DNA of 64,000 nucleotides, from NCBI GenBank assembly GCA_000091205.1, contig AP006488.2; one strand, written 5' to 3'. The notes under the pieces are model-generated. The model saw only the letters and a list, made by a program, of their open reading frames with translations, was not told where the DNA came from and made no database searches. The position numbers were made by a program, and so were the translations under genes. Shown here one piece after another: positions 9,606-55,100 of this stretch (positions within the stretch are counted from its first letter, which is position 1; the number at the start of each line of letters is the position of its first letter). This DNA comes from Cyanidioschyzon merolae. Taxonomy: Eukaryota.

Positions 9606-9648
<43 letters not shown>

Positions 9649-14044: not shown

Positions 14045-14169
14045 TGACTTAGAATGAGGCGAGAAAGGAAACCGTCTAGAAGAGTGTCTCGGTCTCGACA
14101 AGATGCTGGTTCTTGTCAACGGTTGCTTTGGTATCGATTTCCTCAAGGATGTTTCTGTGTGTAATGATC

Positions 14170-16423: not shown

Positions 16424-16440
16424 CAGCCTCCGTCACTCTT

Positions 16441-22704: not shown

Positions 22705-22842
22705 CACATCAGCTGGAGAGTTCTTCTCCAGGGCCCCGGTCGCCACTACTGTACACTGCTGCCGGTAGCAACAAGTAGCAAAAGTTCAACCGACGAGTCC
22801 ACGGATGGATACTCGGCCAAAAGGTTCAGGTCACCGTTTTAG
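20389..22842 (+). pseudogene. Fanzor/TnpB-like RuvC nuclease (OrfB_Zn_ribbon-type) pseudogene
   Basis: One continuous frame; all seven ORF-track pieces start at coordinates congruent to 1 mod 3. It is interrupted by 10 in-frame stops (TAG at 20731, 21283, 21763, 21979, 22018, 22246; TGA at 20995; TAA at 21046, 21367) with no frameshift. The open frame continues 138 nt past the element terminus to TAG at 22840. Confidence 0.7.
21615..21830 (+). repeat. Internal about 72-bp x2.5 tandem duplication inside the nuclease ORF
   Basis: The repeated peptide 'KEDPATQE(V/M)(E/Q)DNDLVVG(V/A)TK(D/H)E(D/E)(E)KK' sits immediately upstream of RuvC-I '[16 protein letters not shown]' and duplicates its lead-in. 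Confidence 0.8.
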
Positions 22843-31253: not shown

Positions 31254-32813
31254 CGGATGGATAGTGATTCGCCCTGTGATCGCGAGGCTTTTCCGCACCA
31301 CTTATCACACTTGAATCATGATCGAAGAGTGGTAAATCGCATTGTTTCCCGAAAGACGAGTCATCAGTACCTGCGAAACATCTTCTCTACCATGTGAATG
31401 ACCATCTCCTGCGGTATTTTGAAAATGGAGTGCAATAAGTGATTTTTTTCGTTCGTATAGCTCAAAGAATTCCGCTCTTAGACGTGATTACTTGCGGCTG
31501 GCAAGCAATATGCACCGTCGCATTGCATGGTGCGAATCGTGACCGGGCAACGCAGTCATCGAAAACAAGAATGTGATGAGGTCCGACTAACTTTGCAGAT
31601 GCATCTCGAGAGACGCGTGCTTCCAAACGCCCCGAAATTAGGCTCAGCGTGCGCTTTCGAACAAGCTTCGCATGCAGACATGCTCAGCAATCGCACCCCT
31701 GGTCCATCTGATACGCGCTTCGGATTGGCGTACGGTGCGCTTTCAGAAAGGCCGTACTCGAAGCGAACATGCCGAGCAACTTTGCCAAGTAGCGATATAC
31801 CGCGGATCCGGAGCGCAGCCAGTCGCACGACGAAGCTGCCCACTATCTACAGAGTATACTGGGCATACGGACTTGGCAACATCCATTCATCGGGCGATCT
31901 GTGGCCTGCATGGGGTTTTCACTTGGTCCGCTCTGAAGCTGCTCGTAAACAACAACATGCCGTCCAAAACGCGGTTCCTATGTTGAACGCTGCATGGTGA
32001 TTCTATACCTCGCGATCCATTTCCATCAAAACCGGTAAACCTCGTCAAAACTGGATCTTCGCCCGACATATTGATGAGACTGAGACAACCACCTCATTAA
32101 CATATGGTCTCTGATGAAGTCGTCGTCCGTACGGGTGTCAAAACAACGTGTCCAGTAACGAGTCTCAACGATGCTCGGCTAAACGTGTACATTTCGAAAA
32201 CCTGCTGCGTGCCTCGATCGCCACACAGCGACATCCTCTGAGCAAACAGTTTTGTCTATATCTATACCATAATTTCCTTTTCTTTCATTCCACGGCGCGA
32301 TCGCTCCAAGCCGCAGAGGCTGCGCTCGCGGCGGTCCGCAGTGACGCGCCCTGCGATCTGTGCGTCGCCCTCTGTAGCATGCCTTGTGCCGACGGTGCAG
32401 AGCGTATCGAAGCTTGCGTCAAAACGACAACTCCGTCAGCATAACACGTTGTCGAAGGACGTATTTCGGAAACCTGGAGGGAGACTGTGTTCCGTGACCA
32501 AGCATCCTCGTGCGAGGTCGGCCGATTCCACTTTTAAGACGTTCAGCGGCGGCGTACGAGTGGAGAGAGATCACGCAACGCGGCAAGGTGTGGTGCGGCT
32601 GTTGCCAGGTTTCGTGCCTGAAGAGAGGCCGCGCTTGCCGTTAACTTCTGACCTTTGGCGACTGAAAAGCCATTCTAAATCACCAGAACGGGACTATTGG
32701 GGTTTGCAATCTTCCAGCAGAGCCCTCTGGGCACACATTTGACGTCCAGAGAACGGTGAAGCTCGGACAACAGCACCCGCCGGCAGCATTATTGCTCGCG
32801 TACTGTGCGCTCC

Positions 32814-35183: not shown

Positions 35184-38100
35184 GCCCAAGTTCGACGAAA
35201 ATCCATAGCAGGCGCGTGGGCTGTGCGTTGCGACCAGCGAAAGCACGCGCTTCTGTGTTCGAGTTTGTTTGTTTGTTTGTGTGTCGCATGCAGCGGTATA
35301 CAAGGCATCAGATGCCTCGATACTCGTGATGGCACTGAGATCGGCCTGGACGGCGACTCTGGAGCGGATCTGGTGCTTCCGCGGGGCCGCGTCGCTTCCC
35401 GGGGATCTGACCAAGGATGCGGCGCTTCGCAAATGCTTCATCGGATGCACTAGTTCGATGCCACGGTCGCGCAGCTTACGCATGCGTGTGCCCAGATACC
35501 AAAGCGCGTCTTCAGAACGAGCTTGCGACGCGTTTCATGCAAACGCAAGGCGCTCTTGTTGTGAGCGCGCTCGTGTCATGGACTGCATAATCGAGACTAA
35601 CAGATGTGATGGCTTGAAGCGCTTGGTTGGACGTCGTCGGTCGTGCGCCCTGGCGGTGATACCCGAGCCCCTCCTGTTTATCCAGCATGAACGCGCGCCA
35701 CTTTTCCATGCGTACCTGCCCCGCGCGCTTGCTTGGGTAGTTGCGCCAAACCGCGCGTCGACCTGTCATAGTCACCAGGAGCGTCGTGAACGAGCTTGCC
35801 CTGGGCGCAACGCTTCCGGGCGTGCAGCGGCATCCCACGAGGTTACCCTGGAGACGATCTCGCGACGACCGGTTGCCTTTGGTAAGCACCGGGTACTTTT
35901 CTCGATAGCGAACCACTGAGGACCGGACTCATGTTGTACAATAATGTCTTCTAAAGCGAAAGAATCTTAATCCGATGCCAAAATCGCACGCAACTCACAG
36001 ATGCAGCTATGTGTGGTGCATCCTTGCAGTTCCACCGCGATCGCCAGCATCGACACTGGAACACCCGGGCGAGCTCCGTAGCGATCAGTTTTCAGGTTCC
36101 AGGGCAGCAGGGACGAGCTCGTGACGTCTCGGGCAAGCCTTCCGTTGCTGGCGGTACACTAGCGGTTACCGGATTGCGTCAAGACTCGAAGGTGATGCGA
36201 TGAACGCACACCCTGTGTTGGGCCCGTGGGATTGAGTCCACTGGGAGCTGGAAGGCTTTGAATGGGAGCCTCAAGGTTCCCGGGGTATTGGAAGCCCGCC
36301 AGCGAACTACCCTGCGGGTGCACCGGTGCCCATGGGCGGCTCCAAGCTTCCCTGGATGCAGGGACACGGCAGCGTGCATTGCTGTTGTTGAGCCTGGCTC
36401 GAGAGACTCGGGCGGGTATGCACGCTTGAACGTAGCCAAGGCGACATTGGGATTTTCGTACCTTCGAGCTGCGGCAACTCTTTGAAGATTTACGTTATGT
36501 AAACTGCACTAATGCCAGAATAAACTGGAACTGGTGGTCTCATTCAGGAGTACACCCTAGCGTACGAGTCGCTTTCCGTTGTTAAGAAAACTAGTCTCTA
36601 CGGGCTTTGAAGGCGACTGCTTCATGCTCCTCCTACTTATCTCCGGCCTGAAATACGCCAGTTTATGCTGTCCGTCCATCGATGTTGATGGCATCGTTAA
36701 AGTCACGATTTTGCTTCCTCTAGACACTGTTCACGCATATCATGGACAGGTGGAAGTTGCGATCGACGATTCGCTTACCGTGCTCATCAGCTTCGTTTGC
36801 AATCTCGCTGCGCGCTTCGCAGCGTTGACACTGAACGGGGTTTTGAGGTTCCCATTAGTCTATGGCATGTTCTGGCCCGAGTGGCGCCCTGTGGCACGTA
36901 GACTAATGGGAACCGTCTTGGACACACGCTGTCCTAGTACAGCAGGCTACCCGCCATGAACTCCTCGGTTCGCGCGCCCGTTGCCGAACCCTACGATCAC
37001 GGCGTCTTCTGGGCGGTCTTCTCAGCGAGTACTCTGTCTGCTGCGCGAGGACGCAAATGCTGTCGTGCTCTTCGATAGGGGATTTCTGGAACGCGATGTT
37101 CTTTATGGTTGAACAAGAACCGGGAGGAGAATCCAGGTTCAGAACAATTCGAGAAATTACAATCTGTCTGCGCTTCCGTTGTGCAAAGCAGTGACGTATT
37201 TTCGATTCCACACGGTCGCTGCGATGACACGAGTCCGACTCCAAAACCCTTTGCGATGGGAGCGGTAGAGACGGCACCCGCTGGTAGCACATCCGGTGTG
37301 CAGGAACGTGCTGGTGACGAATCCCGCGTAGTCGATGTTCACTGAGAGGGAGGGTTTTGTGTTTCGGACAGATTTGACTATTATTCGGCGTGAAATGTTC
37401 AGTGTACAAGTCTGCTCGAGCAAGTGCGTCGAGATTCTTTTATCTTCAATGCAAGGACGCCAATCGATGCGCCTATGAGGTGCCTTGAAACAGAACTAGT
37501 GAAAACTCGTAGAATGCGTGATTTGAGCGTGCTATAAGTTCGGAATGGCAGGATTCAGAGGCTCGAACGCGTGAACCGGATAATGAAAGTGGCTATTTTA
37601 GGAACCGTTATTGGAGAACGTTGCGAATTATCTTGATTTCGGTGATGTAACACATGCCAGCTACAAAGCGGCGACGTAGCCACTCCAAAGAAACGACTGA
37701 GAATCCTCATGCAATACGTGAATCGATTCGCTTTTCCGCTTGCACTGCAAATGTTTGGCGTGTGTGCAGTTCGCAAAGCTCTGAACTATCGATATACTGC
37801 AGCTGGGCGAGCAGTCCAGTGTTCTATTTTAATTTGGCTGAATCTGAACGGCAACAAAGTGTCGGCATGGAGGTTGCCCCAGCTCTCTGCGACGCCTATT
37901 CGGATGTTGGAACAACGTCCTAGATTCGTGATTCGCCCCAAGGGTCGCTTGATTGCGTTTACACTTCACGGACGAACTCGGAAACAGCGATAGAGATCGT
38001 CAACGACCTGCTACCCGGAAGCCTTCTGGCGAGTTCACTGCCTTGACTATACCTGCAACAACTGGCAGCGAGCGCTACACAGTTCGATACTCGGATCCTG

Positions 38101-38665: not shown

Positions 38666-39226
38666 ATGAACGACGCCAGCGCAGAGGAAAGTTGCACGCG
38701 GCTATCGCCGATCCACTTGGAAGCCTGGATCAAGAAGAACAGAGACCTGTTGCGACCGCCGGTGGGCAACGTCGTCCTGGCAGATGGTGGATTTCTCGTA
38801 ATGCTCGTCGGTGGTCCCAACGTCCGAACCGACTACCATATTGAGAACTATGAAGAAATCTTTTACCAGATTGAGGGCGATATTTCATTAAAAATCGTTG
38901 ACGAACACCAGAGTCCTCCCGCGTTCAAGGAGGTGCGTATCAGAGAGGGCGAGCTCTTTGTACTTCCAGCAAGGGTCCCGCATTCTCCGCAGCGACCAGC
39001 TGGGACTGTCGGCCTGGTCATCGAGCGAAAGCGAGCCGCCGACGACCTCGATATCCTGCGATGGTACTGCCAGTCCTGTAGTGCGGTTCTCCACTCGAGC
39101 GAGTTTCACTGCAAGGATATCGGAAAGGATCTCGTCCCCATTATTCGAGAATATTTCGCTGATCGTTGTCTACGCACCTGCCGTCATTGTGGTTGGATCG
39201 AGCCTGCGCCCACAGAGCAGCGATAG
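38666..39226 (+). CDS. HAAO: 3-hydroxyanthranilate 3,4-dioxygenase (kynurenine pathway)
   Basis: Cupin HAAO signatures: 'VMLVGGPNVRTDYHIENYEEIFYQIEGD', 'REGELFVLPARVPHSPQRPAGTVGLVIERKR', and a C-terminal 'C..C...C..C' rubredoxin-like site. The first ATG is at 38666 (the track start at 38660 is TTG). Confidence 0.85.
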   Translation: MNDASAEESCTRLSPIHLEAWIKKNRDLLRPPVGNVVLADGGFLVMLVGGPNVRTDYHIENYEEIFYQIEGDISLKIVDEHQSPPAFKEVRIREGELFVLPARVPHSPQRPAGTVGLVIERKRAADDLDILRWYCQSCSAVLHSSEFHCKDIGKDLVPIIREYFADRCLRTCRHCGWIEPAPTEQR

Positions 39227-40720: not shown

Positions 40721-42159
40721 CCAGTGTAAGCACAATATGGGAGAGACCCTTTTCTGCTGGCGTACACGCTAACGTTTGGGTCGCGTCCCACGCTGATCGA
40801 CACCAGCCTTTGTTCGCGTTTTCTACCACCGCCTCCTTTTGCTCGCTTTTAGCTCCAGCGTGAACTACGACGGTCTCAACTGTCCCGCCAGCTCCACTTT
40901 CAGGAGTCGAAGCATGTCGATGGCAGCGTTCAGGTCGCGGTTGCGCTGCCTCCGGCTGGTGTCAAGGCTCCGCCAGCACCGGCAAAAAAGGTCGCGATCG
41001 ACGCCTCGCTTGCCACCTTCGTGTTCTTTGAATGGAGCCACGAAGCGGCCCGGCACAGCGGTGACACTTGGCACTGGTCAGAGGCTCGAGCGTATTCACC
41101 ACACCCTGTGAGCCGCGGACGACCCTGTAGCGCGTCAGGGCTCGCTTCATCGCTCGGTAAACGCTCTACCTGGAACAGAAGCGTCCTATCAATACGATTC
41201 TCGGTCTCAACGACTGGTGCACTGTCCTAGAAGCACGGGATTCTCGCCGACGATACCCTGGGCGGGGGCTTTGCCCGCTGCACACACACACACACACACA
41301 TACGTACATCCATCCATCCATACATACATACATACGCACACACAGCATCGTGTGCAGTTCCATTCCATTGAGGGCTGTGGAGCGCGAGTTCTGCATAAGA
41401 TGGAACAATTGCCTTGACGAACTTGCTGGCTCTAGATCGAGTAGAGATACTGCGATCTGTCGAGGCTTCCTGCGACCAAGGCGGTGACACTTGTGGTACC
41501 ACAGGCGATCGCCGCGGTAATCGAGTCCCAAGTCGAGCATTCTTTTCCAAACAAACAGAAGAGACAGTGCTTCTCGGGGCTTGGTAACGAAGCGGTAGCA
41601 TACTGCTGCCGAATGCCGCCTCGATCCTGGTCACAGAGACCCGAGGATTCGTCTCCCGCACGGAATGGATTCCATGACGCCAGGAGTCCAGTGAACTCTC
41701 TGTGTGTGAGCTTGCGAACAGGTCGTCCGAGCACGACATACACTTCTCTCCATCTCCATCGGCCTGCCGGGCGCATATTGCTGCACCCAAGCGTTGCCTC
41801 AATATAGAACGATCGAAAACTTGAGGTATGCACGGCGTGAGCGTGCTGCTCACTCGCAAACGAGAGGACTGGCGGCTTGTACGCGTGCAACGGATGCTCA
41901 TTGCAATGTTTCCGTATGAACCGCTGTACGAGTGTATCGCGAAGCATCCTGACTCTGGTAGCGTGACGAATTCGGGCGGGACAGCGTCGAGGAAGCCGCA
42001 CCAAAACGTCGACCGATGATCCTGAAACGACGCATGAATCCATCATACGTTGTTGGTGCACCTCGAATGTCGAGCGTGTTCGTGTACCAAGAAAACGCTG
42101 GAGACAATATCCAGCGGCATCGACAGAACAAACAGTTCAGCGTTCCAGTTTGAGATCCG
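40721..42159 (-). mobile_element. Family-2 element (R2), copy X, carrying a degenerate TnpB/Fanzor-like gene on the minus strand
   Basis: Minus-strand frames give 'NTLEPLTSAKCHRCAGP' (TSxxCxxCG zinc-ribbon motif) and, after a frameshift, 'RRQRNRDLNAAIDMLRLL' (RuvC-III). It also contains (CA)n and (CATC/CATA)n at 41279-41345. It is about 97% identical to 49752-51202. Boundaries are where the two copies diverge. Confidence 0.7.
41279..41345. repeat. (CA)n plus (CATC/CATA)n compound microsatellite inside R2
   Basis: Direct reading. The homologous tract in copy Y (about 50310-50378) differs in length. Confidence 0.9.
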
Positions 42160-42485
42160 GAACGGATGTAGACCGTGGCTCCCCATGTAACCAAATCGAA
42201 CGTCTTGAACGTCGTGAATTTCGCAAGAACGACTAGTGGAGCTCCCCGAGCTATCCGTTCAGGATCAGTTGCGGAAACTGGGGACGCTCCTAGCTGAGTG
42301 CATTCTGACGGTCTTCAGGAGCGGGGGGTCGCACACGAGCAAACCACCCACGTAGCAGGTCGTCGGAGTTTCACGCCCCGTTCCAAGGCCAGCAGTTAGA
42401 ACCTGGTTGCCGTAAACTGGGCCAGTCGGTTTGGGGCCTGGGGGTCGTTGCAGGCTTTCGCTTGCGAAGACGTTGCGGCCTCGTC

Positions 42486-45400
42486 ATGGACAAGGTCGCA
42501 ATTTCGAGGACGAACACAGCCTCGGCGACCCCGGAGGCTGGCAAATCCCACAAGCCGGTACATTTGCCAGCGGGGTCTCTTCAGGAAACCGTGGAAACAC
42601 CCGACGGCAGGGCGGCTTCAGACCCTCTAGAGCGCTACTTTGTGAATACGGAGCAACTATGGACGACACTGGAACAGGAGTTTCGGCAGTCGGACTACGA
42701 GTTTGGCGTTTCTGCGGCTGCCTTGCTTGCGCAGATACCCGAAGCGTACCGGGTGTCTGCGAAGAACTTTGAGCTTACAAGCACCCCTGAGTTTCAATAC
42801 TTGTCCCGAAAACTTGGTGCGTCCCACGACTTGGTGGAAACAGAAGCCGAACTCACGCGCTCACTCGAACGATATATAAGGTTCAGCAACCGATGCTTCG
42901 AAATGCAGGTTGCAGCCGAAGACCCATCGGCACCAACGCTGCGTAGATGCACGAGCTTGGGTGCTGTGGCTGAGACGGAGTCCTCGCTTCGGGACTTGGT
43001 GAGTGAGTTGTCATCAGAATGGCCGCGACAACTGAAAACGCTCTCCGGAGCGTTAGGCGCCCTTAACCTCAGTCGACAACGGCTCGAGCGAGAGCGACAG
43101 CGACTCGGGTCCCTCATCGCCGTACTGGAACAGCTCAAAAGCGTTCGCGATATTTCGCGAGCCGCAGAGCTCTACGAAGAGCACCAGGATCTATTGAAAG
43201 CTGCATATACTTACCAGCGTCTGGATGCGTGTGCACACGAGGTTTTTCGAAAGTGGGATGCGGTACCGCACGCGAGTGACGTCCGCAGCGCAGGGCCAGC
43301 TGAACGCTCGGCGTCAGCAGACCGCCAGTTTGACATTGCTGATGTTCGTCTCGTCGAGGACTTTTCCCGACACCACAGGGCCTTGAGACGGCGACTGGGG
43401 ACGGCGCTCGAGCACCAAATCGTTGCACAATTTCAGATTACACTGAGTTTCGTTTGGAGTGCAGCCGCCGAACCCGCTCCACCAATACCGACGTCGACGT
43501 CGATGTCGACACGAACGCCCGAACGACTCACTTCTGAGCAGACTCCAGGGTCGTCTCTGGCGCTGCTTTGCACACTGCGCGAGGAGATCACACCTTTTGT
43601 GGCGGCGCTTTATCAGATTGGCATGGCAAGCGGTGCCCTGTACCGCGTAACCACAGGCCTGCTTCATGAGCTGAACAATATTGTATCTGCTGAACAGGAT
43701 GCGTGGGCATGCGATTCCGCGCAGGCATTCACCACATTCTTGTCAAAGTGTCGCACTTTTGTTCCAGGAGCCGTTGCAGTCATCGACACGTTTTTCGAGG
43801 TGGCGAGTCAGCTGGAGAGCCTCGAGGCCTCCGGTCATGTGCCGCACAGGTCACACGTCGAGCGTGCAGATGTCCTCAGCGCTTTCCGCGATGGCTTTGG
43901 AGCGCGATTTCGAGATGCTGTCGATAGTGTTGTACAGGCCTGTCGACCGGCCGACTTTGAACAGGTGAGGTTTCTCCTGAAAATTCATGTGGAAACGCGC
44001 GATTTTCTCAAGTTTTTGGATCGCATACTCGAGGTGCGGAATGATCGCCCCGCCGCCTCGTCCTCAGTAGTACTGGTTGATCTGCGGGACCGCATTCGAA
44101 ATACGATGCAAGCTGCGTTTGAGAAAAAGCTGGAGTCCATGCAGGTTAGCCTGAACGCAGAGCGTTGGGTTCCAGCGACAAGCACTGCAGCATTGCAGTC
44201 TCTTTTGGATCGCCTTGTTCGAGATACGTCTGCTCCTTTGTATGCAGAATCGATGACCATGGAAGATGGCAAGGTCCGTGAGCATTCCGAAGGCCAGCCA
44301 GCGACAGTCGTGCTCATGGGAGAGCGATTTGTGCTTGTTGACGCCTCGCAGGACCTTTTTGAACTGTTGGATGCGTGCGCGCTCTGCTTCCGAGACGCAT
44401 TACATTGCGAAGAAGTTGCATTGGCGCACGCGTTGAGTATGCGCGTTCTCGAGGCTTTGCGGACGTTCAACCAACGGTCGCTGCAGTTAGTTCTCGGAGC
44501 AGGCGCGATGAAGACGGCGCACCTCAAGGCCATTACCGCAAAGCATTTGGCCGTCTGTGCGCGCACCGTGGACCTGTTGCTCCGTCTTTTGCATCCACAA
44601 GAGAGTGATCGATACCAGGGCCTCCAGAGGTGGTTCTGCCCGACGCTTCGCCAGGCGGATGTCGGCATGGACCCGGATGCAAAACCCGCTTTGGAAAGGA
44701 ATAGCCCTCGTGCTGAAGACGCGGCGCGCCAGCATGCAATAGAATTGTCGGATGCCACTGCTGGGAAGCTTCATGTGGTCCCCGGTGTGCCACAGGAGCC
44801 ATCATCATCACCGCAGACGGAAGGCGGTGCTGCGACAGTGCACGCCGTTCCCGAGTTGGCGACGCCAAGGGAGCCATCCGCGCAGTCTGTCGTTCGTGAC
44901 GCGGATCTCGAACGGGCTTTTGAGCGTACGATCGCGGATCTGCAGGTACATCGGGCGCAGCTGCTCAACAAGATCGTAATTATCATGCAGACTCGCTTAC
45001 GAAATCGCATAGCGGAGCTTCGACGACTACCCTTGGAACAGTACGCAGTGGTCTCTGAGACAGGGTGCGCTGCACCCAGCACTTGGGCATCTGCTTTGAT
45101 TCGAGATATCACCACGCTGGAGCGCATCCTGAGTTCTGTGCTGCCGACCGTTGCGCTTCGATCCCTGTTTGAACAGATTATTGCCGCGTATTCCCAGAAT
45201 CTTCGGGCGGAATTCGTCCGGCTAACTGAAGAGTATCTCGGTGGGAATCGCGGGCCGTCAACGAATGTGGAAGCAGGGGCGGTTCCACCCCTGGGCACCA
45301 TGCTGAACCAGGTCGCCGCGGATGCCACGGCCCTGGCGGAGGCTGTTCGGAACCTTGTGAGCTCCCTGAATGCGAATATAAGTGAGAGCTACGTTGCCGA

Positions 45401-45566
45401 TTTCGATGCAATCGCACATACGTACCATAATCTTGCTGAAAAGCACGCATCTGCTTCGTCGCCCGTTGACCCAGCTGAAGCGCCTTGTGCGGCTACCACT
45501 GGAGGCAGTGCGTGCGAAAACGAGGTCACGCCGTCCACGGATCCCATTGAAGGCGACGCGCGCTGA
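42486..45566 (+). CDS. Large conserved-looking hypothetical protein, about 1026 aa, no family assigned
   Basis: Uninterrupted 3.1-kb ORF with balanced composition and predicted helical/coiled-coil stretches. It might be a vesicle-tethering-type subunit, but no diagnostic motif is recognised. The first ATG is at 42486 (the track start at 42462 is TTG). Confidence 0.4.
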   Translation: MDKVAISRTNTASATPEAGKSHKPVHLPAGSLQETVETPDGRAASDPLERYFVNTEQLWTTLEQEFRQSDYEFGVSAAALLAQIPEAYRVSAKNFELTSTPEFQYLSRKLGASHDLVETEAELTRSLERYIRFSNRCFEMQVAAEDPSAPTLRRCTSLGAVAETESSLRDLVSELSSEWPRQLKTLSGALGALNLSRQRLERERQRLGSLIAVLEQLKSVRDISRAAELYEEHQDLLKAAYTYQRLDACAHEVFRKWDAVPHASDVRSAGPAERSASADRQFDIADVRLVEDFSRHHRALRRRLGTALEHQIVAQFQITLSFVWSAAAEPAPPIPTSTSMSTRTPERLTSEQTPGSSLALLCTLREEITPFVAALYQIGMASGALYRVTTGLLHELNNIVSAEQDAWACDSAQAFTTFLSKCRTFVPGAVAVIDTFFEVASQLESLEASGHVPHRSHVERADVLSAFRDGFGARFRDAVDSVVQACRPADFEQVRFLLKIHVETRDFLKFLDRILEVRNDRPAASSSVVLVDLRDRIRNTMQAAFEKKLESMQVSLNAERWVPATSTAALQSLLDRLVRDTSAPLYAESMTMEDGKVREHSEGQPATVVLMGERFVLVDASQDLFELLDACALCFRDALHCEEVALAHALSMRVLEALRTFNQRSLQLVLGAGAMKTAHLKAITAKHLAVCARTVDLLLRLLHPQESDRYQGLQRWFCPTLRQADVGMDPDAKPALERNSPRAEDAARQHAIELSDATAGKLHVVPGVPQEPSSSPQTEGGAATVHAVPELATPREPSAQSVVRDADLERAFERTIADLQVHRAQLLNKIVIIMQTRLRNRIAELRRLPLEQYAVVSETGCAAPSTWASALIRDITTLERILSSVLPTVALRSLFEQIIAAYSQNLRAEFVRLTEEYLGGNRGPSTNVEAGAVPPLGTMLNQVAADATALAEAVRNLVSSLNANISESYVADFDAIAHTYHNLAEKHASASSPVDPAEAPCAATTGGSACENEVTPSTDPIEGDAR

Positions 45567-46499
45567 TACTTGCGTTCAGATTACCATGTCCGAGAACTTG
45601 CGGAAACAAAGCATGCACATGAGCAATGTCTGCTGAGGCGCAGGCGCCGGCTGACAGCCGGTCCATGTCCGCTGTGTTAGAAGCGGGCCGTCATTCTGCC
45701 CCAGCCGAGCACGCATTTCGTTGTAGTGGTACCAGTGGGCATGCCGCATACGCAAGGTAGGCACCTGGGTTTCGTTTCAATGCCGCTGGCGCAGACAAAT
45801 GATGGCGTACAAGCGCCTGTGCCCGAGAACGCCAGGCCCGCGCAAACCCGAACGCCGCACCAGCGTAAAGCGACAGCGCGCTGGCGTGTTCCAGGCCGCG
45901 GGACCTGCGCACCTCTGGGGGTCGCGGGATTCACATTGTGGATGAAGGCAAACGGCATCGCTCTGTAAAAGAGACTTGTCGAAATATCACGCTTCATCGT
46001 TCCATTGCCCCGCATGGAAACAGCATGCGAATGGATTCACATCATAACGCACTGGTGCTGCGTCCACAGAGCGCACAGTTCGCACCCGAGACCCTAGTCA
46101 CGATATCCGCACCATTCATGATCGCGCTGTTCAAACGGTGCCTTCATGCTTGGGTATTGGCAAGCACGCAGAGCACCTGCAACGTGAACGTTTCAGGGTC
46201 TCGCTGGCGATTTGCATATCGCCTTGAACCGCCATAATCATGCACAATCCATCATATCTTCAACAAGTTGTCCCTGGAGGCCAGCTTCGCCTATCTCAAT
46301 CATATATACCAATGCTGAGTCGAACAACTTGAAGTGAGATTCGCGAGATGACGCACACGAATTGTTCGTAGATGCGTGTCCGCACGCATGTTGCTGTATG
46401 CATGCGTGCGCAGCTTTTTTTTTCTTTTTTTTCTTCATTGACAAAACGTTTCCATAGGCCAGCGTTCTCCGATGATGCGCATTTTTCTTTTCTTTTCCG

Positions 46500-46760
46500 G
46501 TTTTATTCAGTACGCGGTGAGTTATCCATCAAACCCCCTACTCCCAAGTTATATGACCTATGCTTCTTCTCGGATATTCAGGTCGTTTCGCACGTCCTAT
46601 CGTGTGTGCCTAGTGCCTGCCGAAAGCGACAGCAATAGCGCCTATAGCGCCGGTGCGGTCGCTGCACCGAGACAGAATGGCGTTGCCGTACCACAAAGGG
46701 CGTCGGCTCGAGGCTGCGACCGATAATACCGGCAGCAGCGCCCGCTGCAATCGATGCATC
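46500..46760 (+). repeat. Partial copy (F3) of the 5' 'F' region of the family-1 long element
   Basis: 'CTTCTTCTCGGATATTCAGGTCGTTTCGCACGTCCTATCGTGTGTGCCTAGTGCCTGCC...GAGACAGAATGGCGTTGCCGTACCACAAAGGGCGTCGGCTCGAGG' aligns with 19586-19740 and 54480-54600. Confidence 0.4.
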
Positions 46761-47224
46761 GATCGTACGCAAAAGAAATGGAATGCCTTGACGGATGTAC
46801 CTGGTTCGGTGAATCGATCTTACATGATAAAACTAGTATGCTTTGAAGGATATTCGGGGCCTACGTGGACGCTGCCGGCCAGTCAGCAGCAAGTTGCGCA
46901 AATCATCCGTTTCTTTCCGAGAAGCAGCCATCGATCCACACAAACACCTGCTGCTGCGCCAGCGCTGCCAGTCACGACCTAGCAGACACAATTCGCGCGC
47001 GCTCTACACACGCCTCTGCATTCCGTGAGCTCCAGCCCAGTGATCCCATCCAGAAGAGCTGTTGGTGTCGATCCAGATACCTGGTTGGTGCCGAGCACCG
47101 TCTGGGCGCTTGCTGCGGCATCAGCGATACCGCAACGAACGTTGCGAGGGCGCATCCCACGTGCACCACGCGCACTGCCGTACAGGGAACGCCTGCAGCA
47201 GAGCAGGGCACCTGTGCGAGCGAT

Positions 47225-47300
47225 TCATCGATGGATCCATCGATTCATCCATCGATCCATCCATCGATTCATCCATCGCAGCGCCGCCGCCGCCGCCGCT
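47225..47300. repeat. (CATCGATG/CATCC)n-like tract followed by (GCC)n
   Basis: Direct reading in the region upstream of the PLP-enzyme gene. (CCA)n at about 47527-47560 and (CAG)10 at 47745-47774 follow. Confidence 0.85.
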
Positions 47301-47743
47301 GGTGCCGCTGCCATCCGCCGACGCATCGTACTCGGGGATGCCGCGGCTGCGGGGCACAGCGTTACGGTGCACGTCGCGCTAACGACCTGGGTTACCGCAG
47401 GCGTTCCCTTTTCCTGGTATGCGTAGAGGTCGTGGTGAGCCTTGTGAAACCGGGGCTCGACGGGAGCTGGCGTGTACGTTGAGCTTCGTTCCGCCTGGGT
47501 CGGCTGGCGGGTGGACTCGTGGTAAGCCGCCACCACCACCACCAACACCAACACCACGTGCACCATTATCACCACGATCACCGCCAGGTTCGTGTCAACA
47601 AGTTTCAAGGACGATACCAGCGTCGGCACGAGCCAACAATTGCGAGCGGGTACGCATTCACGCAGTCGATTCGTGTGTTTCTCTAGTCGCGTTGCGGCGA
47701 CGAGACTCGAGCGGGATCGGCGTTCTAGGTCGTGACCGCGCCC

Positions 47744-47744
<1 letters not shown>

Positions 47745-47774
<30 letters not shown>
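47745..47774. repeat. (CAG)10 trinucleotide repeat
   Basis: Direct reading. It encodes poly-Ser in the long ORF frame upstream of the likely start of the PLP-enzyme gene. Confidence 0.9.
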
Positions 47775-47775
<1 letters not shown>

Positions 47776-47940
47776 TTCTGGTTGGCGAACACGCCAACTC
47801 GGCGCTGGTGCACCGGCCTCGAGGCGCGCGGTACGGGCTTTTTCGTGCCGCGCTCTTCAGAGCACCTACTTTACAATTGGGGTTCCCGAAGGCACGTAGT
47901 GCAGCGAGGCACTTGCCAACGGGCTAGCGCTGGAGCTCTG

Positions 47941-49608
47941 ATGCTCTCGCTGACCAGCCACCGTCGCCAAGAGACGCCATGCTCATCGCGGACAAACGCC
48001 GGCGATACATTCACGTCGGATGAATTGGCCACTGTGGAGCAGCTGTTAGAGGTCGCGCCGCAAGAGCGTGCGGAACTCGACCGGGGAGGCACTCTGTCTG
48101 AATCAGACGGTAATGGGCGCGGTGAAGCCGAGGGTGTAGCTGCGACAGCTCCGGCTGCGACAGAAGGCATGGACCGTCAACGTGCGCGCCTCATCCAGGA
48201 CGCTCGGTCGTCGACCCGTGCTGTGCACGGCGGTGAACGTGCCAAGGGCGGAAAGAAGGCCAAAGCGACGGCGGACTCGTTGACAACACCCATCGTGCAG
48301 TCTTCAACGTTCACGTTCCGCAATACGCGGGAATGTATCCAATATAACTTAGGTAAGTACTCCTCGTTCGAATACGGAAGGTACGGAAACCCAACGACAC
48401 GGGCTGCGGAGGAGAAACTAATCGACCTCGAGTGCGGGAATCTGGCACAGCAGGATGCTCATCCGGACTCCGCCGTCTATGATGCGCTCTTGTCGGCCTC
48501 CGGTATGAATGCCGTCACCACCATGTTGTTTGCATTGTTCGCCTTGGACAATGCAGATGTACGGGGCGCGGGGCTCGGTACCACGGTCTCAGAGGAGGGC
48601 ACTGGTGGTTGCCTCATCACGACGACAGACTGCTATCGCCGAACGCGCCAGTTTATTGAAGAAATGATGCCCCGACTCAACGTGCGCGTCGTGATCATGG
48701 ATCCAAGCGACCTTGCGCTGCTGGAAAGTACGTTGCGGGAAATACGAGAGTCCACCGACGGCGCCATCACCCAGCAGAGAGTCGTGTTCTTCAGTGAGTC
48801 GCCGACGAACCCCCTTCTGCGTCTAGTGGATGTGCCGCGCATTGTTGCACTGGCGCGTCAATACGATATGATGGTCTGCATTGATAGCACGTTCGCCACA
48901 CCAATCAACCATCGACCGCTAGAGCTTGGGGCGGATCTCGTGCTCCACAGTGCGACCAAGTACCTGGGTGGCCACAACGACATTCTTGCCGGCGCTCTGA
49001 TCGGCCGTGCTGAACTCATCGCAAAGGTTCGTCGCGCGCACGGCATCCTTGGTGGCGTCATTGATCCCCACACGAGTTATCTGCTCCTGCGTGGACTCAA
49101 GACCCTCAAGATCCGTGTGGACGCCCATAATCAGAATGCTGCCGCTCTCGCACATCGACTGGCCAATGATGAGCGCATCGCCTGTGTCCATTGGCCGGGT
49201 TTACCTGAACACCCCGATTATCACCTCGGTCGCCGCCTTCATGAAGCGTATGCTCAGTTTAGGGCAGCGGATGGTGGTTGCGGCTTTGGTGGTGTGCTCT
49301 CCTTCGAGTTGCGTGGTCACTTGCGCGGTGGCGCCGACGATCCCTACGGTGCGGAGACGTTTCGCCGTACGGGAAAGTTCATCGACGCACTCCGCATACC
49401 GTACATCGGCCCGAGCCTGGGCGGCACGGAAACTCTCGTCGAACAAGTCTGCATCATGGGCTATTTTGATCAACCGCTTTGGCGACGACGCCGTCTCGGA
49501 ATCACTTGCGGTCTCGTGCGTTTCTCCTGTGGAATCGAGGACGCTGAGGATATCGTTCAAGACGTGATGCATGCACTAGACGTGGCGTTCGAGGATACGT
49601 ACGTGTGA
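47941..49608 (+). CDS. Cys/Met-metabolism PLP-dependent enzyme (cystathionine gamma-synthase/beta-lyase family) with an N-terminal extension
   Basis: '[11 protein letters not shown]...[11 protein letters not shown]...YGRYGNPT...', the PLP-lysine context '[18 protein letters not shown]', and the C-terminal '[13 protein letters not shown]'. The start could be ATG 47941 (MLSLTSHRR, targeting-peptide-like) or ATG 48169. The ORF is open from 47419 through microsatellites. TGA stop. Confidence 0.8.
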
Positions 49609-49751
49609 GGTTCAGCAGGGTAGGCTCGCTACCAGAGCGACTTGAGCTCACCAGAGCAGCGCATAATAGCATCTCCGTCGGATGCTCGACATGCTATAAA
49701 CAGAGGCAGGATCATTTACGATACCGCTTGTTCGTAAACCGGAATGGATGC

Positions 49752-51202
49752 CCAGTGTAAGCACAAAACGGGAGAGACCCTTTTCGGCTGGTGTACACGC
49801 TAACGTTTGGGTCGCGTCCCACGCTGATCGACACCAGCCTTTGTTCGCGTTTTCTACCACCGCCTCCTTTTGCTCGCTCTTAGCTCCAGCGTGAACTACG
49901 ACGGTCTCAACTGTCCCGCCAGCTCCACTTTCAGGAGTCGAAGCATGTCGATGGCAGCGTTCAGGTCGCGGTTGCGCTGCCTCCGGCTGGTGTCAAGGCT
50001 CCGCCAGCACCGGCAAAAAAGGTCGCGATCGACGCCTCGCTTGCCACCTTCGTGTTCTTTGAATGGAGCCACGAAGCGGCCCGGCACAGCGGTGACACTT
50101 GGCACTGGTCAGAGGCTCGAGCGTATTCACCACACCCTGTGAGCCGCGGACGACCCTGTAGCGCGTCAGGGCTCGCTTCATCGCTCGGTAAACGCTCTGC
50201 CTGGAACAGAAGCGTCCTATCAATACGATTCTCGGTGTCAACGACTGGTGCACTATCCTAGAAGCACGGGATTCTCGCCGACGATACCCTGGGCGGGGGC
50301 TTTGCCCGCTGCACACACACACACACACACTCATACGTACATCCATCCATCCATACATACATACATACGCACACACAGCATCGCGTGCAGTTCCATTCCA
50401 TTGAGGGCTGTGGAGCGCGAGTTCTGCATAAGATGGAACAATTGCCTTGACGAACTTGCTGGCTCTAGATCGAGTAGAGATACTGCGATCTGTCGAGGCT
50501 TCCTGCGACCAAGGCGGTGACACTTGTTGTACCACAGGCGATCGCCGCGGTAATCGAGTCCCAAGTCGAGCATTCTCTTCCAAACAAACAGAAGAGACAG
50601 TGCTTCTCGGGGCTTGGTAACGAAGCGGTAGCATACTGCTGCCGAATGCCGCCTCGATCCTGGTCACAGAGACCCGAGGATTCGTCTCCCGCACGGAATG
50701 GATTCCATGACGCCAGGAGTCCAGTGAACTCTCTGTGTGTGAGCTTGCGAACAGGTCGTCCGAGCACGACATACACCTCTCTCCATCTCCATCGGCCTGC
50801 CGGGCGCATATTGCTGCACCCCAAGCGTTGCCTCAATATAGAACGATCGAAAACTTGAGGTATGCACGGTGTGAGCGTGCTGCTCACTCGCAAACGAGAG
50901 GACTGGCGGCTTGTACGCGTGCAACGGATGCTCATTGCAATGTTTCCGTATGAACCGCTGTACGAGTGTATCGCGAAGCATCCTGACTCTGGTAGCGTGA
51001 CGAATTCGGGCGGGACAGCGTCGAGGAAGCCGCACCAAAACGTCGACCGATGATCCTAAAACGACGCATGAATCCATCATACGTTGTTGGTGCACCTCGA
51101 ATGTCGAGCGTGTTCGTGTACCAAGAAAACGCTGGAGACAATATCCAGCGGCATCGACAGAACAAACAGTTCAGCGTTCCAGTTTGAGATCCGGAACGGA
51201 TG
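49752..51202 (-). mobile_element. Family-2 element (R2), copy Y
   Basis: About 97% identical to copy X. Here the minus-strand ORF 49993-50772 is continuous through the microsatellite into '...YRVVRGSQGVVNTLEPLTSAKCHRCAGPLRG'. It lies between the PLP-enzyme stop (49608) and the UTP7 stop (51336). Confidence 0.7.
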
Positions 51203-51335
51203 AAGATGCTCTCCGATGGAGCTCTTGTCAAATGTAACCTGCCTTTCCACGCGAATGACTGAGCGTCGGGGCCTCTCAACGATGATTCTTTCACAAAATC
51301 TGCCACTCCTAGTAAACCTTACCCGAATTTACAGG

Positions 51336-53273
51336 CTACCGTTGGTGTTGGTGAAAGCTTTGCAACGCCCGCGGCATCAACTTTGCGAGATGTGCGCGGT
51401 TTGTGTGCCTCTCGCTGCGCAGTGTCGCTTGAGTGGCATCCTTGGATGAGCGCTGCCCAGTTTCATGATCATGAACACGAGGATGGCCTCGTTGACGACG
51501 ACGACGACGATGCTGAAGCATTTGCACTAGACGGGTTCGGAGCGCTTCGGCCTTCGTGTCGATCACATTTTGTTGACGCCTTCGTAGTCGATTGGCGAGA
51601 GCATTCCTCCCACGGCTCTTTCGGAGTGAGGGGTGCTTCACCCGACGCCGCCACGGCGGTACCGAAGCCGACAAACCCCCGTTCTCATCGGTCTGTGCAT
51701 CCTCGGGTGCCGAGCTCTGGTCTTCTCGAGGTGCTGCCTCGTTGGGTGCAGTTTCTGCTGGTGGTCGGTAGCGAAGCTGCGAGACTCGCCTTCCTGTGCG
51801 CTGGACTCTGCGGTGATCTCGTTCTACCCGTCCAATAAAGTTCGGGTCGAGCGCGATGGTTTCTGGTGGGAGCTTCTCCAGCAGCAGCTGCACTTGCGCT
51901 GCGCGGCGCTGTGCTTTCTGCCAGTAGGGGTTAGGCTCAAGCGCATCAAACTCGGGCTCTCCGGATCCAGGGACGAGGCACGACTCGAACCCAGTAGAGT
52001 AGCCAACACCGAGCACATCTTCGAAAGGCGCAAAAGCAACAGCGCTGATCCGCGTCCCGCCGGCTCCAACACCGACCCGTGTCTGCAGGTAGGGCTCGTA
52101 CGCCTTGGCCTCGTACAGTGCCCAGTCCTTCCAGATGATCACTCGACCTCCAGCGCTGTGCCCGATCGCCAAGAGCCCAGTTTGACTGACGTCCATTGAG
52201 GTAATCAAACCACCGCTTTTCGATTCGTAGGAATGAATCGGTCGGAACAGTTTCCGCATGTCCCATACGGCAAAGTGTCGACTCGCTGCCCCGGCGGTTA
52301 CCAGGTAACGACCGCCGTGATCGGTGGCGACGGCAGCAACGCCACCGTAACCCGGATGCGCAAGAACCTTTGCCAACGGCTCGTTTGGCATAGCCGGAGA
52401 CCACAGCTGCACCGTTCCGTTGGCATGTCCGGTGAACGCGACGCCATGGTAGGGGCTCGTCGTGAGCGCAGCGCTCGGTCTGCCCAGATGCGTCGGGAAC
52501 TGGGCCACCGTCATTCCATTCGAGACGTCGGTGTAGTGGAGTTCGCCCGTCTCGCTCATACTCAATAACAAAAGATGATATCGCAGAAAATCGAGACTAT
52601 GTGGGCGCGAGTGTTGACGCAGGCAGTGGATCTGGGCACCACTGACGGCGTCGTGGATAGCGACAGCACGTTCCACGGCCGCTGCAAACAACCCGTCTGT
52701 ATGCAACATCACAACATCGCGGAGGTGTTCTCCAAGGTGCAATTCTGGTGCCATGGTGCGCTTGCGGCGCCAGTCCAGAACGACGACATGGCCGTTGTGG
52801 AGTCCTCCCAGCAGCAAGACACGCGAGCTTGCAGAATAACGAGCTCGGTAGCCCATGGTGGGATGTTCGACACCGTTCGAGCTAGCGGCTCGTTCTTGCT
52901 TGCGGAGTACCTGCGAGGCGCGAGTTCGCGAGTAGTCCTCAAAGTCGAGGCGAAAACGCCCTCGTTGTGCATAGAGGCTGCTTGCTTCCTGTAGCGCTTG
53001 CTGAGAAACGTGGCTCGTATGGCGTTCGAGTTCAGACTCGGGCTCGATGAAACCACGCCGGCCTTCCCGATCGAGCAGCAAGTCAAGTTCAGCAGACCGT
53101 TCGGCTGCCTCTCGAGACTGGTGCACCACTTGTTCGATCTTATGCCGAAGGGAACGCTGCGAGACCCGCACCATCGTGTGATCGCTCAGCAGTGCAGTGG
53201 CGGCCGGGGGCAGTCGCTGGTACCGCTTGTAACCGGGTGTCGCCTCGAGCGTCGTCACGCGTTCCTCCACCAT
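51336..53273 (-). CDS. UTP7: U3 snoRNP / SSU-processome WD40 protein UTP7 (WDR46/BING4)
   Basis: WD40 repeats plus the BING4 C-terminal domain 'FAPFEDVLGVGYSTGFESCLVPGSGEPEFDALEPNPY', and a basic C-terminus. ATG at complement 53271-53273. The 116 codons of open frame upstream are taken to be non-coding leader. Confidence 0.8.
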   Translation of the reverse strand: MVEERVTTLEATPGYKRYQRLPPAATALLSDHTMVRVSQRSLRHKIEQVVHQSREAAERSAELDLLLDREGRRGFIEPESELERHTSHVSQQALQEASSLYAQRGRFRLDFEDYSRTRASQVLRKQERAASSNGVEHPTMGYRARYSASSRVLLLGGLHNGHVVVLDWRRKRTMAPELHLGEHLRDVVMLHTDGLFAAAVERAVAIHDAVSGAQIHCLRQHSRPHSLDFLRYHLLLLSMSETGELHYTDVSNGMTVAQFPTHLGRPSAALTTSPYHGVAFTGHANGTVQLWSPAMPNEPLAKVLAHPGYGGVAAVATDHGGRYLVTAGAASRHFAVWDMRKLFRPIHSYESKSGGLITSMDVSQTGLLAIGHSAGGRVIIWKDWALYEAKAYEPYLQTRVGVGAGGTRISAVAFAPFEDVLGVGYSTGFESCLVPGSGEPEFDALEPNPYWQKAQRRAAQVQLLLEKLPPETIALDPNFIGRVERDHRRVQRTGRRVSQLRYRPPAETAPNEAAPREDQSSAPEDAQTDENGGLSASVPPWRRRVKHPSLRKSRGRNALANRLRRRQQNVIDTKAEALRTRLVQMLQHRRRRRQRGHPRVHDHETGQRSSKDATQATLRSERHTNRAHLAKLMPRALQSFHQHQR

Positions 53274-53632
53274 ACTGAATTTGAATAGAACCCGAGATGC
53301 AATATCTAACGTAGTTTGACGCCAGAGAGCAAGTCGCGGAATCCGTGGAAGCGACCCGCGATTCGTCGACGACTCAGGCGCCGTGTGGCACACGCGGCAC
53401 CGCCAAGCCGTGTTTGCACCGGCGACGTTTGCGTTCCCGAGCTCGAACGCCTGCGTGCAGCTGTCGCGCAGGTTGATGAGCTTTAGGTTTAGATCCGATG
53501 GTGTCAGGTTGCTTTGATCAACGAAGGTCAAACGGACAACAAACGGGTCGTCATAAGATGTTGGCGAGTCCGCGTGGCATACGCAGGCCAAGTCTGCAAA
53601 CCGGATATGGATGTAGGTCAATACTTGAATGT

Positions 53633-54303
53633 TTTGTACAAAAGTATAACAAAGATCCCTTAGCGGCGATGCGACTTTCTCATGGCGGGTATCGACGTCG
53701 TACCATATTAACCATTATTGGTCTAAAAAGTACAACAAAGGTCCCTTAGCGGCGATGCGACTTTCTCATGGCGGGTATCGACGTCGTACCATATTAACCA
53801 TTATTGGTCTAAAAAGTACAACAAAGATCCCTTAGCGGCGATGCGACTTTCTCATGGCGGGTATCGACGTCGTACCATATTAACCATTATTGGTCTAAAA
53901 AGTACAACAAAGGTCCCTTAGCGGCGATGCGACTTTCTCATGGCGGGTATCGACGTCGTACCATATTAACCATTATTGGTCTAAAAAGTACAACAAAGGT
54001 CCCTTAGCGGCGATGCGACTTTCTCATGGCGGGTATCGACGTCGTACCATATTAGCCATTATTGGTCTAAAAAGTACAACAAAGGTCCCTTAGCGGCGAT
54101 GCGACTTTCTCATGGCGGGTATCGACGTCGTACCATATTAGCCATTATTGGTCTAAAAAGTACAACAAAGATCCCTTAGCGGCGATGCGACTTTCTCATG
54201 GCGGGTATCGACGTCGTACCATATTAACCATTATTGGTCTAAAAAGTACAACAAAGATCCCTTAGCGGCGATGCGACTTTCTCATGGCGGGTATCGACGT
54301 CGT
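53633..54303. repeat. 86-bp tandem array, about 8 units
   Basis: The unit 'CCCTTAGCGGCGATGCGACTTTCTCATGGCGGGTATCGACGTCGTACCATATTAACCATTATTGGTCTAAAAAGTACAACAAAG(A/G)T' starts at 53657, 53743, 53829, 53915, 54001, 54087, 54173 and 54259. Unit variants are A/G and TTAACC/TTAGCC. The array abuts the 5' end of the F2 repeat. Confidence 0.9.
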
Positions 54304-54319: not shown

Positions 54320-55100
54320 TCACTCGGGTTTTTGTTTGATGGTACGTCTACATTGACCTGGGGTTCCAGATTCCAGGTTGGATAATAGCATTCTTGAAAG
54401 TGCCCATCATGGTGCACCATACCTCCATGCGCCATTCCACATACTTGCTCTTGGACGTACCGGCCGCTTGATACGTTCTATTGTTCGCAGAGTGCCTGCG
54501 CTGCGCACCTGCCATAGCGCCTAAACCCCTGGTACAGATGCATCACGGAGACAGAACGACTTTACCATACTAGCAAGGGCATCGGCATGAGGCGCGCTCC
54601 ACTCGACACGGAATCAGGATTCATCATCATCCTGAGCATAGGGAAGCTGCGCAGACGGACCTACTGCATGCCGCAGCGCGAAGCGATGTACTAGGAGTCC
54701 ACTGCGACCGGGGCGACGTCCAGATGCAGCTTACTTGTTCCTTGTCCCAGAATAAACTGCATTGCGGACGCGTTGCTCAGGTCTCGACACAACACCCCGG
54801 TATTGGAAGGAGCACGAGGCACTAGGCTGGCAGACTCGTCCGGCTCGCGTGATTCTCCGCCTGCAAAGTCAACTTGAGAAAATACGGAAAACTCTGTTCC
54901 ATATGCAACGCTGAACATGAAGCTTGAATGAAAGTGTTATCCAGGTGCTTGTCAGTTGTCACTTTCTGTACTCTCGAACAGACTTTCTCGCAGGGTATTT
55001 GTGCCCGGAAATTGTTGCTCGTTGCCAATCTTCAGGAAACAGCATCGCCACCGGAGTATTCGGAATGGATCGCTCTTTACAAGTTTGACGTCAACCTCTT
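54320..55100 (+). repeat. Solo copy (F2) of the 5' 'F' region of the family-1 long element
   Basis: Homologous over about 600 bp to 19440-20100: 'CATACTTGCTCTTGGAC...AGTGCCTGCGCTGCGCACCTGCCATAGCGCC...CGGAGACAGAACGACTTTACCATACTA...GAAGCTGCGCAG...AAGCGATGTACTAGGAGTCCACT...AATAAACTGCATTGCGGACG'. No nuclease ORF follows. The 3' boundary is approximate. Confidence 0.5.

Follow-up and report, generated by a model that had tools for sequence, protein, structure and literature searches.

We analysed a 64,000-nt stretch of Cyanidioschyzon merolae DNA (hereafter, the window), nuclear DNA of strain 10D and probably part of chromosome 6, in which two nearly identical direct repeats, X and Y, bracket a block of two genes. 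All together, our data make it likely that X and Y are dead, non-autonomous copies of an old repeat family, named here R2, which were duplicated as whole units after their coding sequence had decayed, became fixed and now persist as passive repeats. The R2 family appears to derive from a Fanzor1-type element and, as far as its sequence tells, to be a second, seemingly undescribed Fanzor1-derived family besides the published CMe-1A, bringing at least one more such family to C. merolae, which serves as a minimal model eukaryote and is said to have very few transposons in its genome. The coordinates of all features are collected in Table 1.

Repeat finding, pairwise alignment and self-BLAST all recovered X and Y as two direct copies in one orientation, as proposed in an earlier sequence-only reading of the window. 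The left ends given in that reading agree with ours, and its right ends fall 13 nt (X) and 4 nt (Y) short. Over the 1455 columns of the pairwise alignment the copies are 98.76% identical, differing by 15 substitutions (10 transitions) and 3 gap columns, so that the former estimate of about 97% was too low; a 1.45-kb match at 98.8% identity cannot arise by chance. Nor do the copies differ mainly in their internal microsatellite, as had been claimed: this compound tract contributes a length difference of only 2 nt, and the remaining differences are scattered. The homology between X and Y ends sharply on either side, and their flanks bear no relation to each other. Specifically, a sensitive local search of the flanks found no significant similarity beyond the edges among X, Y and all the family relics described below. 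A TACGAACA common to the 3' flanks of Y and of one of these relics (the full-length copy near 18 kb of the window, hereafter the 18-kb relic) was discarded as being at chance level. X sits between the 3-hydroxyanthranilate 3,4-dioxygenase (3-HAO) gene and the 5' end of the Vps54-like gene, and Y at the convergent 3' ends of the cystathionine gamma-synthase (CGS) and BING4/UTP7 genes; both copies are intergenic and neither interrupts a gene.

The zinc-ribbon and RuvC-III peptides that had been read as TnpB signatures, TSAKCHRCAG and NRDLNAAIDML, were confirmed on the minus strand of X and of Y; within either copy, however, the two peptides are read in different frames. Coding remnants are indeed scattered across all three minus-strand frames. 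Compared to the family consensus frame, X carries about 8 frameshifting indels and 7 stops, and Y about 8 and 8, nearly all of them common to the two copies; these counts are approximate, as they derive from a difficult alignment. One of the lesions is a +1 frameshift directly after CHRCAG, where X and Y read GGGCCGCTTCG and the 18-kb relic reads GGGCGCTTCG. The same shift was present in the environmental copies wherever that stretch was read, and is missing from the 18-kb relic. A TAG at 41166-41168, on the other hand, was found solely in X of strain 10D. Because of the frameshifts, the stops and the motifs being out of frame, no intact nuclease-encoding open reading frame (ORF) exists in X or Y. 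Since nearly all the lesions are common to X and Y, the ancestor of the two copies was already a pseudogene. The microsatellite is an insertion confined to the X/Y lineage; given that it is absent from every older family member, its interpretation as a conserved intron was rejected.

X and Y belong, as its young members, to an old family with units of about 1.3-1.45 kb. Using nhmmer, we identified three older full-length relics in the window, about 63-68% identical to X/Y, and two further R2 members on JGI contigs; thus, five R2 copies are found within 64 kb. In the 18-kb relic, the CHRC and RuvC-III motifs still share one frame. A majority consensus of six R2 lineages yields a single frame of about 394 amino acids with one stop, and, as the consensus restores a single reading frame, the family descends from a protein-coding element. 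The 259-aa ORF of Y, used in an exhaustive protein search, matched no more than two decayed relatives, through which the further family members L017 and L021 were reached, and a word-indexed protein search returned only further copies of the same R2 element. No third young copy was detected in a metagenome scan with a terminal 34-mer or in four cluster-member look-ups, which returned only the X and Y loci.

The assignment of R2 to Fanzor1 was obtained through the family and not through X and Y directly. A Pfam search with the raw ORF fragments of X and Y gave no match, and the stitched X/Y C-terminus reached PF07282 (the Cas12f1-like TNB domain, comprising the C-terminal zinc ribbon and RuvC-III segment) with an E-value of 0.01 and 16 bits, rising to 7e-5 and 23.3 bits with the R2 consensus. 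The consensus matches the intact environmental proteins P0046, P0047 and P0048 (536-610 aa) at E-values of 1e-30 to 1e-35 (3.5e-30 in the comparison of P0048 with the consensus), and P0048 itself scores 32.7 bits against PF07282, passing the gathering score of 26.3 bits. The same three proteins also match actual six-frame pieces of X/Y, with E-values of 3.7e-7 to 1e-5 for the X pieces. A profile built from P0048, P0046, P0047, P0045 and the R2 consensus was then compared through hhalign with a profile of the published Fanzor1 sequences (supplement of PMC3627910), giving a probability of 99.6% and an E-value of 2e-23 over 290 columns. In this alignment the DPG, GYG, E..TS..C and NRD.NAA motifs are in register, the last three being visible in the R2 consensus itself. 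Within a six-sequence set, phmmer linked the R2 consensus to CRe-4 (E 1.7e-9) and P0048 to CRe-2 (E 9e-10). When the six published Fanzor1 proteins were searched with phmmer against the six-frame window, CMe-1A and a further repeat, R1, were matched and R2 was not; therefore, the link between R2 and Fanzor1 required the family consensus and the intact relatives.

The motifs are consistent with this assignment. The series CHRC...C(M/R)(Q)C...NRDLNAAI is readable in the sequence. In Fanzor1 proteins the RuvC-II site is rearranged, the canonical strand being devoid of the glutamate and an alternative glutamate lying just ahead of the TS..C start of the zinc ribbon. The R2 consensus accordingly reads VILGYGTG at the canonical position and DIWEHLTTVKC ahead of the ribbon, where X and Y read NTLEPLTSAKC. 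The RuvC-I motif (G.DPG) appears as GLDPGRV in P0046 and as ALDPGRV in P0048.

Several observations weigh against this assignment. The PF07282 score of the R2 consensus remains below the gathering threshold (23.3 vs 26.3 bits). The RuvC-I aspartate motif is unrecognisable in X/Y and in the consensus, which at this position reads LFQGNSW or LCDQRRSG depending on the alignment, with low confidence. Searches of PDB sequences with the stitched X/Y, the consensus, P0048 and the five-sequence profile found no Fanzor or TnpB, and an AlphaFold2 model of P0048, built on a four-sequence alignment, had a predicted local distance difference test value of 40, too poor for a fold test. On balance, the data support R2 as a Fanzor1-derived family, and X and Y as Fanzor1-type pseudogenes in a eukaryotic nuclear genome and not as bacterial-style TnpB. 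The earlier label of a TnpB-like element is thus upheld through the family consensus, with Fanzor1-type pseudogene as the more precise term.

In the comparison with Fanzor1 as defined by Bao and Jurka in 2013 (PMC3627910), R2 shares the GYG-type strand in the place of the bacterial RuvC-II glutamate, the glutamate just ahead of TS.KC, the CxxC...CxxC zinc ribbon and the NRD.NAA.N of RuvC-III. The profile-profile match at 99.6% extends to CMe-1, CRe-1/2/4, CVu-1 and VCa-1. R2 also resides in a eukaryotic nuclear host and, like several Fanzor1 families, lacks terminal inverted repeats or a determinable target-site duplication. However, X and Y are pseudogenes, the R2 unit of about 1.4 kb with its ORF of about 394 aa is short compared to the ~3 kb and 600-900 aa of typical Fanzor1 elements, and no RuvC-I DPG is recognisable. 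Only residues ~185-536 of the closest intact relative are covered in the alignment with the consensus.

CMe-1A, the published Fanzor1 family of C. merolae, counts about 150 copies, with a 3169-bp consensus to which the members are ~80% identical (PMC3627910); it probably corresponds to the 253-copy, 3.2-kb WSV486-like repeat of Nozaki 2007 (PMC1955436). CMe-1A and R2 have in common the host, the superfamily, the age and decay of the copies, the lack of terminal inverted repeats and an unknown classification. They differ in the unit, 3.2 kb compared to 1.4 kb, and in the CHRC cysteines of the zinc ribbon, lost in CMe-1 and kept in R2. X and Y are not CMe-1A copies: blastn with the CMe-1A consensus matched a nearly full-length element at 19486-22769 and several fragments, and nothing in X/Y, where tblastn with the CMe-1 protein returned only a 12-residue RuvC-III motif at E 9. 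Three points had escaped the sequence-only reading: the coding sequence is dead, the family is an old one with three additional relics in the window, and CMe-1A is not the same element.

The closest intact relatives of R2 are P0046, P0047 and P0048, which are 38-43% identical to the consensus over the C-terminal 170-250 residues and carry near-identical motifs, e.g. KKPVI(I/L)GYGTGRGNG and NRD(L/F)NAAIN. Unlike R2, all three are intact; they measure 536-610 aa and possess N-terminal regions absent from R2, and two of them carry long insertions within the zinc ribbon. The contigs of P0046 and P0047 (among L025-L031, from JGI and ENA metagenomes) are densely packed with many small ORFs and encode Rpb2, an RNA ligase, 2H-SAK and Peptidase_S74. 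They resemble giant-virus genomes, in agreement with the occurrence of Fanzors in large DNA viruses (PMC3627910), and this gene content hints at a possible exchange of the Fanzor1 lineage of R2 between viruses and the red alga.

With the bacterial IS200/IS605 tnpB-only elements, R2 shares a size of ~1.4 kb, made up of about one TnpB-family ORF and a 3' non-coding tail, and the lack of inverted repeats or target duplications. It differs from them in its eukaryotic host, in its Fanzor1-type protein with rearranged RuvC-II, and in that neither an omega-RNA-like conserved structure or Rfam match nor a conserved motif resembling a transposon-associated motif (TAM) beside its 5' end was found. The 3' tail does contain conserved blocks (CAAACGTTAG.GTGTAC and a conserved terminus) across copies diverged by ~35%. 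When the last 220 nt at the 3' end were folded with RNAalifold for five lineages, the energy was only -8.4 kcal/mol and the covariation term unfavourable, so that no convincing structure emerged, and a search of R2 against Rfam returned nothing relevant, the sole match (mir-297, E 0.21) being an artefact of the microsatellite. A guide RNA in R2 is a candidate only, and would have no partner in cis, the protein being dead.

Helitrons are marked by termini of the form 5'-TC...CTRR-3', by insertion between an A and a T, by a subterminal hairpin at the 3' side and, in autonomous copies, by a Rep/Hel gene; some Chlamydomonas Fanzor1 families ride in such elements. In coding orientation the R2 unit starts with TCT(A/T)CATCC and ends with ...ACACTGG, which fits the termini; the flanking bases, G/T for X and A/G for Y, depart from the A and T rule, and no Rep/Hel gene was seen.

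JGI, ENA and Logan assemblies carry the X/Y locus at 98.3-99.4% identity. Naming the X left flank A, the bracketed block B, the Y right flank C and one repeat copy R, we found all four junctions (A-X, X-B, B-Y and Y-C) in more than 30 contigs from the three sources. X is entered at 40721 by 10/10 contigs recovered via the left neighbour gene (L040-L049) and by L001, L022 and L024, and Y is entered at 49752 by 15/15 contigs arriving from the CGS side. Two contigs (L003 and L011) run from within X through the entire block into Y, and three (L005, L023 and L036) through Y into the right flank. The left-edge differences at 40736/40738 follow the flank in every sample, and the right-edge difference at 42169 does so in all contigs but L001. 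Comparison across these populations revealed no empty-site allele among the contigs reaching either site (~13 at X and 15 at Y). Both insertions are real and fixed in the sampled lineages.

The earlier suggestion that the pair is a substrate for non-allelic recombination is plausible and in part backed by two observations. The first concerns positions 41391/41398, which read C/A in both 10D copies and T/T in all the environmental contigs anchored at X or at Y. As these states are lineage-specific and yet common to both copies, they suggest gene conversion between X and Y, on the basis of two sites only; otherwise, two parallel double changes would be needed. Weighing against this reading, the metagenome contigs do not allow variants inside the repeat to be phased to X or to Y, and for this reason the conversion signal rests on the two finished 10D copies and on the uniform environmental state.

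The second observation is an A-R-C path, joining the X left flank, one repeat and the Y right flank, in five contigs from five samples (L022/L041, 115 kb; L033; L034; L039; and L035, from a k=31 Logan assembly), the reference paths A-R-B and B-R-C being found in two and three contigs, respectively. A-R-C is the exact deletion junction predicted by the sequence-only reading. It could represent a segregating polymorphism, in which unequal recombination between X and Y produced a haplotype devoid of one repeat and of the 7.6-kb Vps54-CGS block, coexisting with the reference arrangement. The recurrence of the junction in five samples favours such a deletion, as does the fact that the reciprocal false path, B-R-B, was never seen, though random misjoining should yield it equally often. 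However, when a direct repeat exceeds the read or insert length, the assembly graph contains a loop, which assemblers commonly break into A-R-C and a B contig on its own. Two of these samples hold the B block in precisely this form, as a unitig whose ends reach into the repeat by k-sized overhangs (L011 together with L022, and L007 together with L033). In addition, methionine-pathway and GARP genes would be lost through such a deletion, in a genome which is haploid in cultured cells. Repeat collapse during assembly accounts for the five contigs as well as a real deletion does, and, all points considered, we regard a segregating deletion as rather unlikely. Were it true, natural Cyanidioschyzon populations would carry a 9-kb deletion (or an excised circle) generated through two dead Fanzor1 relics, with Vps54 and CGS removed, and repeat-mediated structural polymorphism would exist in a genome usually called nearly transposon- and rearrangement-free. 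The deletion or duplication of the Vps54-CGS block is, at present, an event that X and Y could mediate, by prediction. Genome engineering in C. merolae uses homologous recombination, for which a pair of direct repeats of 1.45 kb, 98.8% identical and enclosing two genes, is a practical hazard.

Concerning the origin of the pair, we propose that the ancestral R2 element coded for a compact Fanzor1-type RuvC/zinc-ribbon protein, a eukaryotic relative of TnpB which would have been an accessory nuclease and not a transposase. The X/Y lineage would then have gathered frameshifts, stops and the microsatellite insertion, and afterwards a single copying event would have placed the entire unit, from edge to edge and without change of orientation, at another intergenic site at a distance of 9 kb, the likeliest route being transposition by a factor presumably supplied in trans. 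At present, X and Y would be passive 1.45-kb direct repeats that may have exchanged sequence by gene conversion, as the two sites mentioned above suggest. Only the unit itself is duplicated, its edges match the R2 family termini within ~10-35 nt, no homology extends beyond them, the relic at 36523-37833 was not homogenised and no third young copy was found, all of which makes a single copy-and-insert event the simplest reading. The recent segmental event previously envisaged is not supported, since the element alone was duplicated, without flanking sequence and with edges roughly at the family termini. Against copy-and-insert weigh the lack of a transposase, of terminal inverted repeats, of target-site duplications and of a common or TAM-like target motif at X/Y, as well as the number of young copies, only two, with which non-transpositional copying would also fit. 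The duplication of a dead R2 copy after the loss of its frame bears on how Fanzors spread without a transposase of their own; the current view of TnpB/Fanzor biology is unaltered, and the repeat arrangement is ordinary.

The main alternative for the origin of the pair is that two ancient R2 insertions already occupied both sites and that one long ectopic gene conversion overwrote one of them, with no new insertion. The age of the family and its local density (five copies within 64 kb) would agree with this, the two sites discussed above point to X/Y conversion, and neither target-site duplications nor terminal inverted repeats were found, all of which would suit this scenario. It agrees poorly, however, with the sharp edges of the repeats: the high identity ends abruptly, within ~10-35 nt of the family termini, and no leftover ~65% homology is seen beyond. 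Moreover, the conversion would need to start between copies ~35% diverged, and the relic just 2.9 kb from X was left unhomogenised. Whole-unit conversion is thus, in our opinion, quite improbable, and we retain duplication of an already decayed unit.

A composite transposon made up of X, the two genes and Y and moving as a unit is hardly credible, being suggested by the geometry only (two direct copies around a cargo): both copies are pseudogenes, the protein they derive from is no transposase, no target duplication is common to the outer flanks, the cargo consists of single-copy housekeeping genes whose synteny with the neighbours is conserved in every contig, and the block has no second copy in the window. 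Finally, the earlier concern that one copy is an assembly duplication in the reference can be put aside with near certainty, since the genome was finished telomere-to-telomere by bacterial artificial chromosome and polymerase chain reaction Sanger sequencing (PMC1955436) and all four distinct junctions were independently assembled in many samples; the 18 differences between the copies, of which those near the edges are constant across samples (42169 except in L001), argue in the same direction, and no support for a duplication was found, though an earlier genome draft held misassemblies that were later corrected (PMC1955436).

Table 1. Positions in the window of the repeats, their motifs, the related relics and the surrounding genes
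Feature	Position	Strand	Remarks
R2 copy X	40721-42172	minus (coding sense)	1452 nt; decayed Fanzor1-type element
R2 copy Y	49752-51206	minus	1455 nt; orientation as X
TSAKCHRCAG	X 41049-41078; Y 50080-50109	minus	first zinc-ribbon CxxC remnant
NRDLNAAIDML	X 40910-40942; Y 49941-49973	minus	RuvC-III remnant; aligns to NRDFNAAINI of P0046/P0048 and published Fanzor1
Compound (CA)n/(CATC)n/(CATA)n microsatellite	X 41278-41350; Y 50309-50383	undefined	2 nt longer in Y
Older full-length R2 relic (18-kb relic)	17911-19212	minus	nhmmer E 1.5e-83; X positions 33-1416
Older R2 relic, 2.9 kb upstream of X	36523-37833	minus	nhmmer E 2.4e-64; X positions 19-1438
Older R2 relic	61067-62399	plus	nhmmer E 6.7e-63; X positions 22-1427
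Left neighbour, 3-HAO	38666-39226	plus	anchors the A flank in population contigs
Bracketed gene 1, Vps54-like (GARP complex subunit)	42486-45566	plus	PF07928, E 8e-21
CMe-1A fragment, between the two bracketed genes	46537-46713	plus	78% to CMe-1A consensus positions 84-256
Bracketed gene 2, CGS	47419-49608	plus	729 aa; Cys/Met PLP enzyme; PF01053, E 1e-91
Right neighbour, BING4/UTP7-type WD40 nucleolar protein	51336-53621	minus	761-aa ORF; PF08149, E 1.6e-27; anchors the C flank

The pair does bracket two genes, as previously described. The second was correctly assigned to the cystathionine synthase family, and the first, then reported as an unknown gene of ~1030 aa, is Vps54-like. Its ORF is open from 42462 (1034 aa), and the start chosen by the gene caller gives 1026 aa. 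The CGS ORF is an exact match to C. merolae 10D BAM79513.1 / XP_005535799.1. Gene calls on metagenome contigs begin at an internal methionine, giving 555 aa compared to the 729 aa annotated, and the true start of CGS is therefore uncertain. Short tandem repeats are found at 47221-47278 (a 12-nt unit, 4.4 copies) and at 47744-47774 (GCA, 10 copies), in relation to the N-terminal extension of CGS. On the right side, the environmental contig L037 lacks ~83 nt of the BING4/UTP7 ORF region (window 51940-52023) compared to 10D, and the gene call on this contig is of 648 aa, compared to the 761-aa open frame in the window.

Besides R2, the window holds three direct copies of the R1 repeat (~2.26 kb), at 543-2792, 7880-10145 and 14168-16424, all on the plus strand and spaced 6-7 kb apart. 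They are 98.3-98.8% identical, a level of divergence and a local direct arrangement like those of X/Y, and R1 and X/Y may have been duplicated in one shared episode. Each R1 copy has a weak similarity to the Fanzor1 protein CMe-1 (35% identity over aa 546-608, with a phmmer E-value of ~1e-6), and R1 is therefore probably another decayed Fanzor1-derived family.

The nearly full-length CMe-1A copy at 19486-22769, on the plus strand, is 82-88% identical to the published consensus, and its Fanzor1 ORF is 74% identical over aa 1-731, with nine in-frame stops. It begins 274 bp from the 18-kb R2 relic. A CMe-1A copy is also closely preceded by an R2 relic on the JGI contig L017, but there the orientation of the two elements to each other is not the one seen in the window. 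A tandem array with an 86-bp unit (7.7 copies, 98% matches) adjoins a 630-bp CMe-1A-like segment (window 53640-54303 and 54344-54972, respectively); the segment matches the first 635 bp of CMe-1A at 78% identity and corresponds to TE-N2_CMe of Bao and Jurka. Besides the fragment in the bracketed block, short CMe-1A fragments are found at 63694-63814, 31014-31254, 11933-12223 and 25397-25773. With five R2 copies, three R1 copies, one full CMe-1A and these fragments, the window is far richer in Fanzor-derived repeats than the reported transposon content of 0.7% suggests. The genome paper described eight 'class II' elements weakly similar to bacterial transposases, with E-values of 0.071 to 6e-7 (PMC1955436), and these could be TnpB-like relics of the R2 type.

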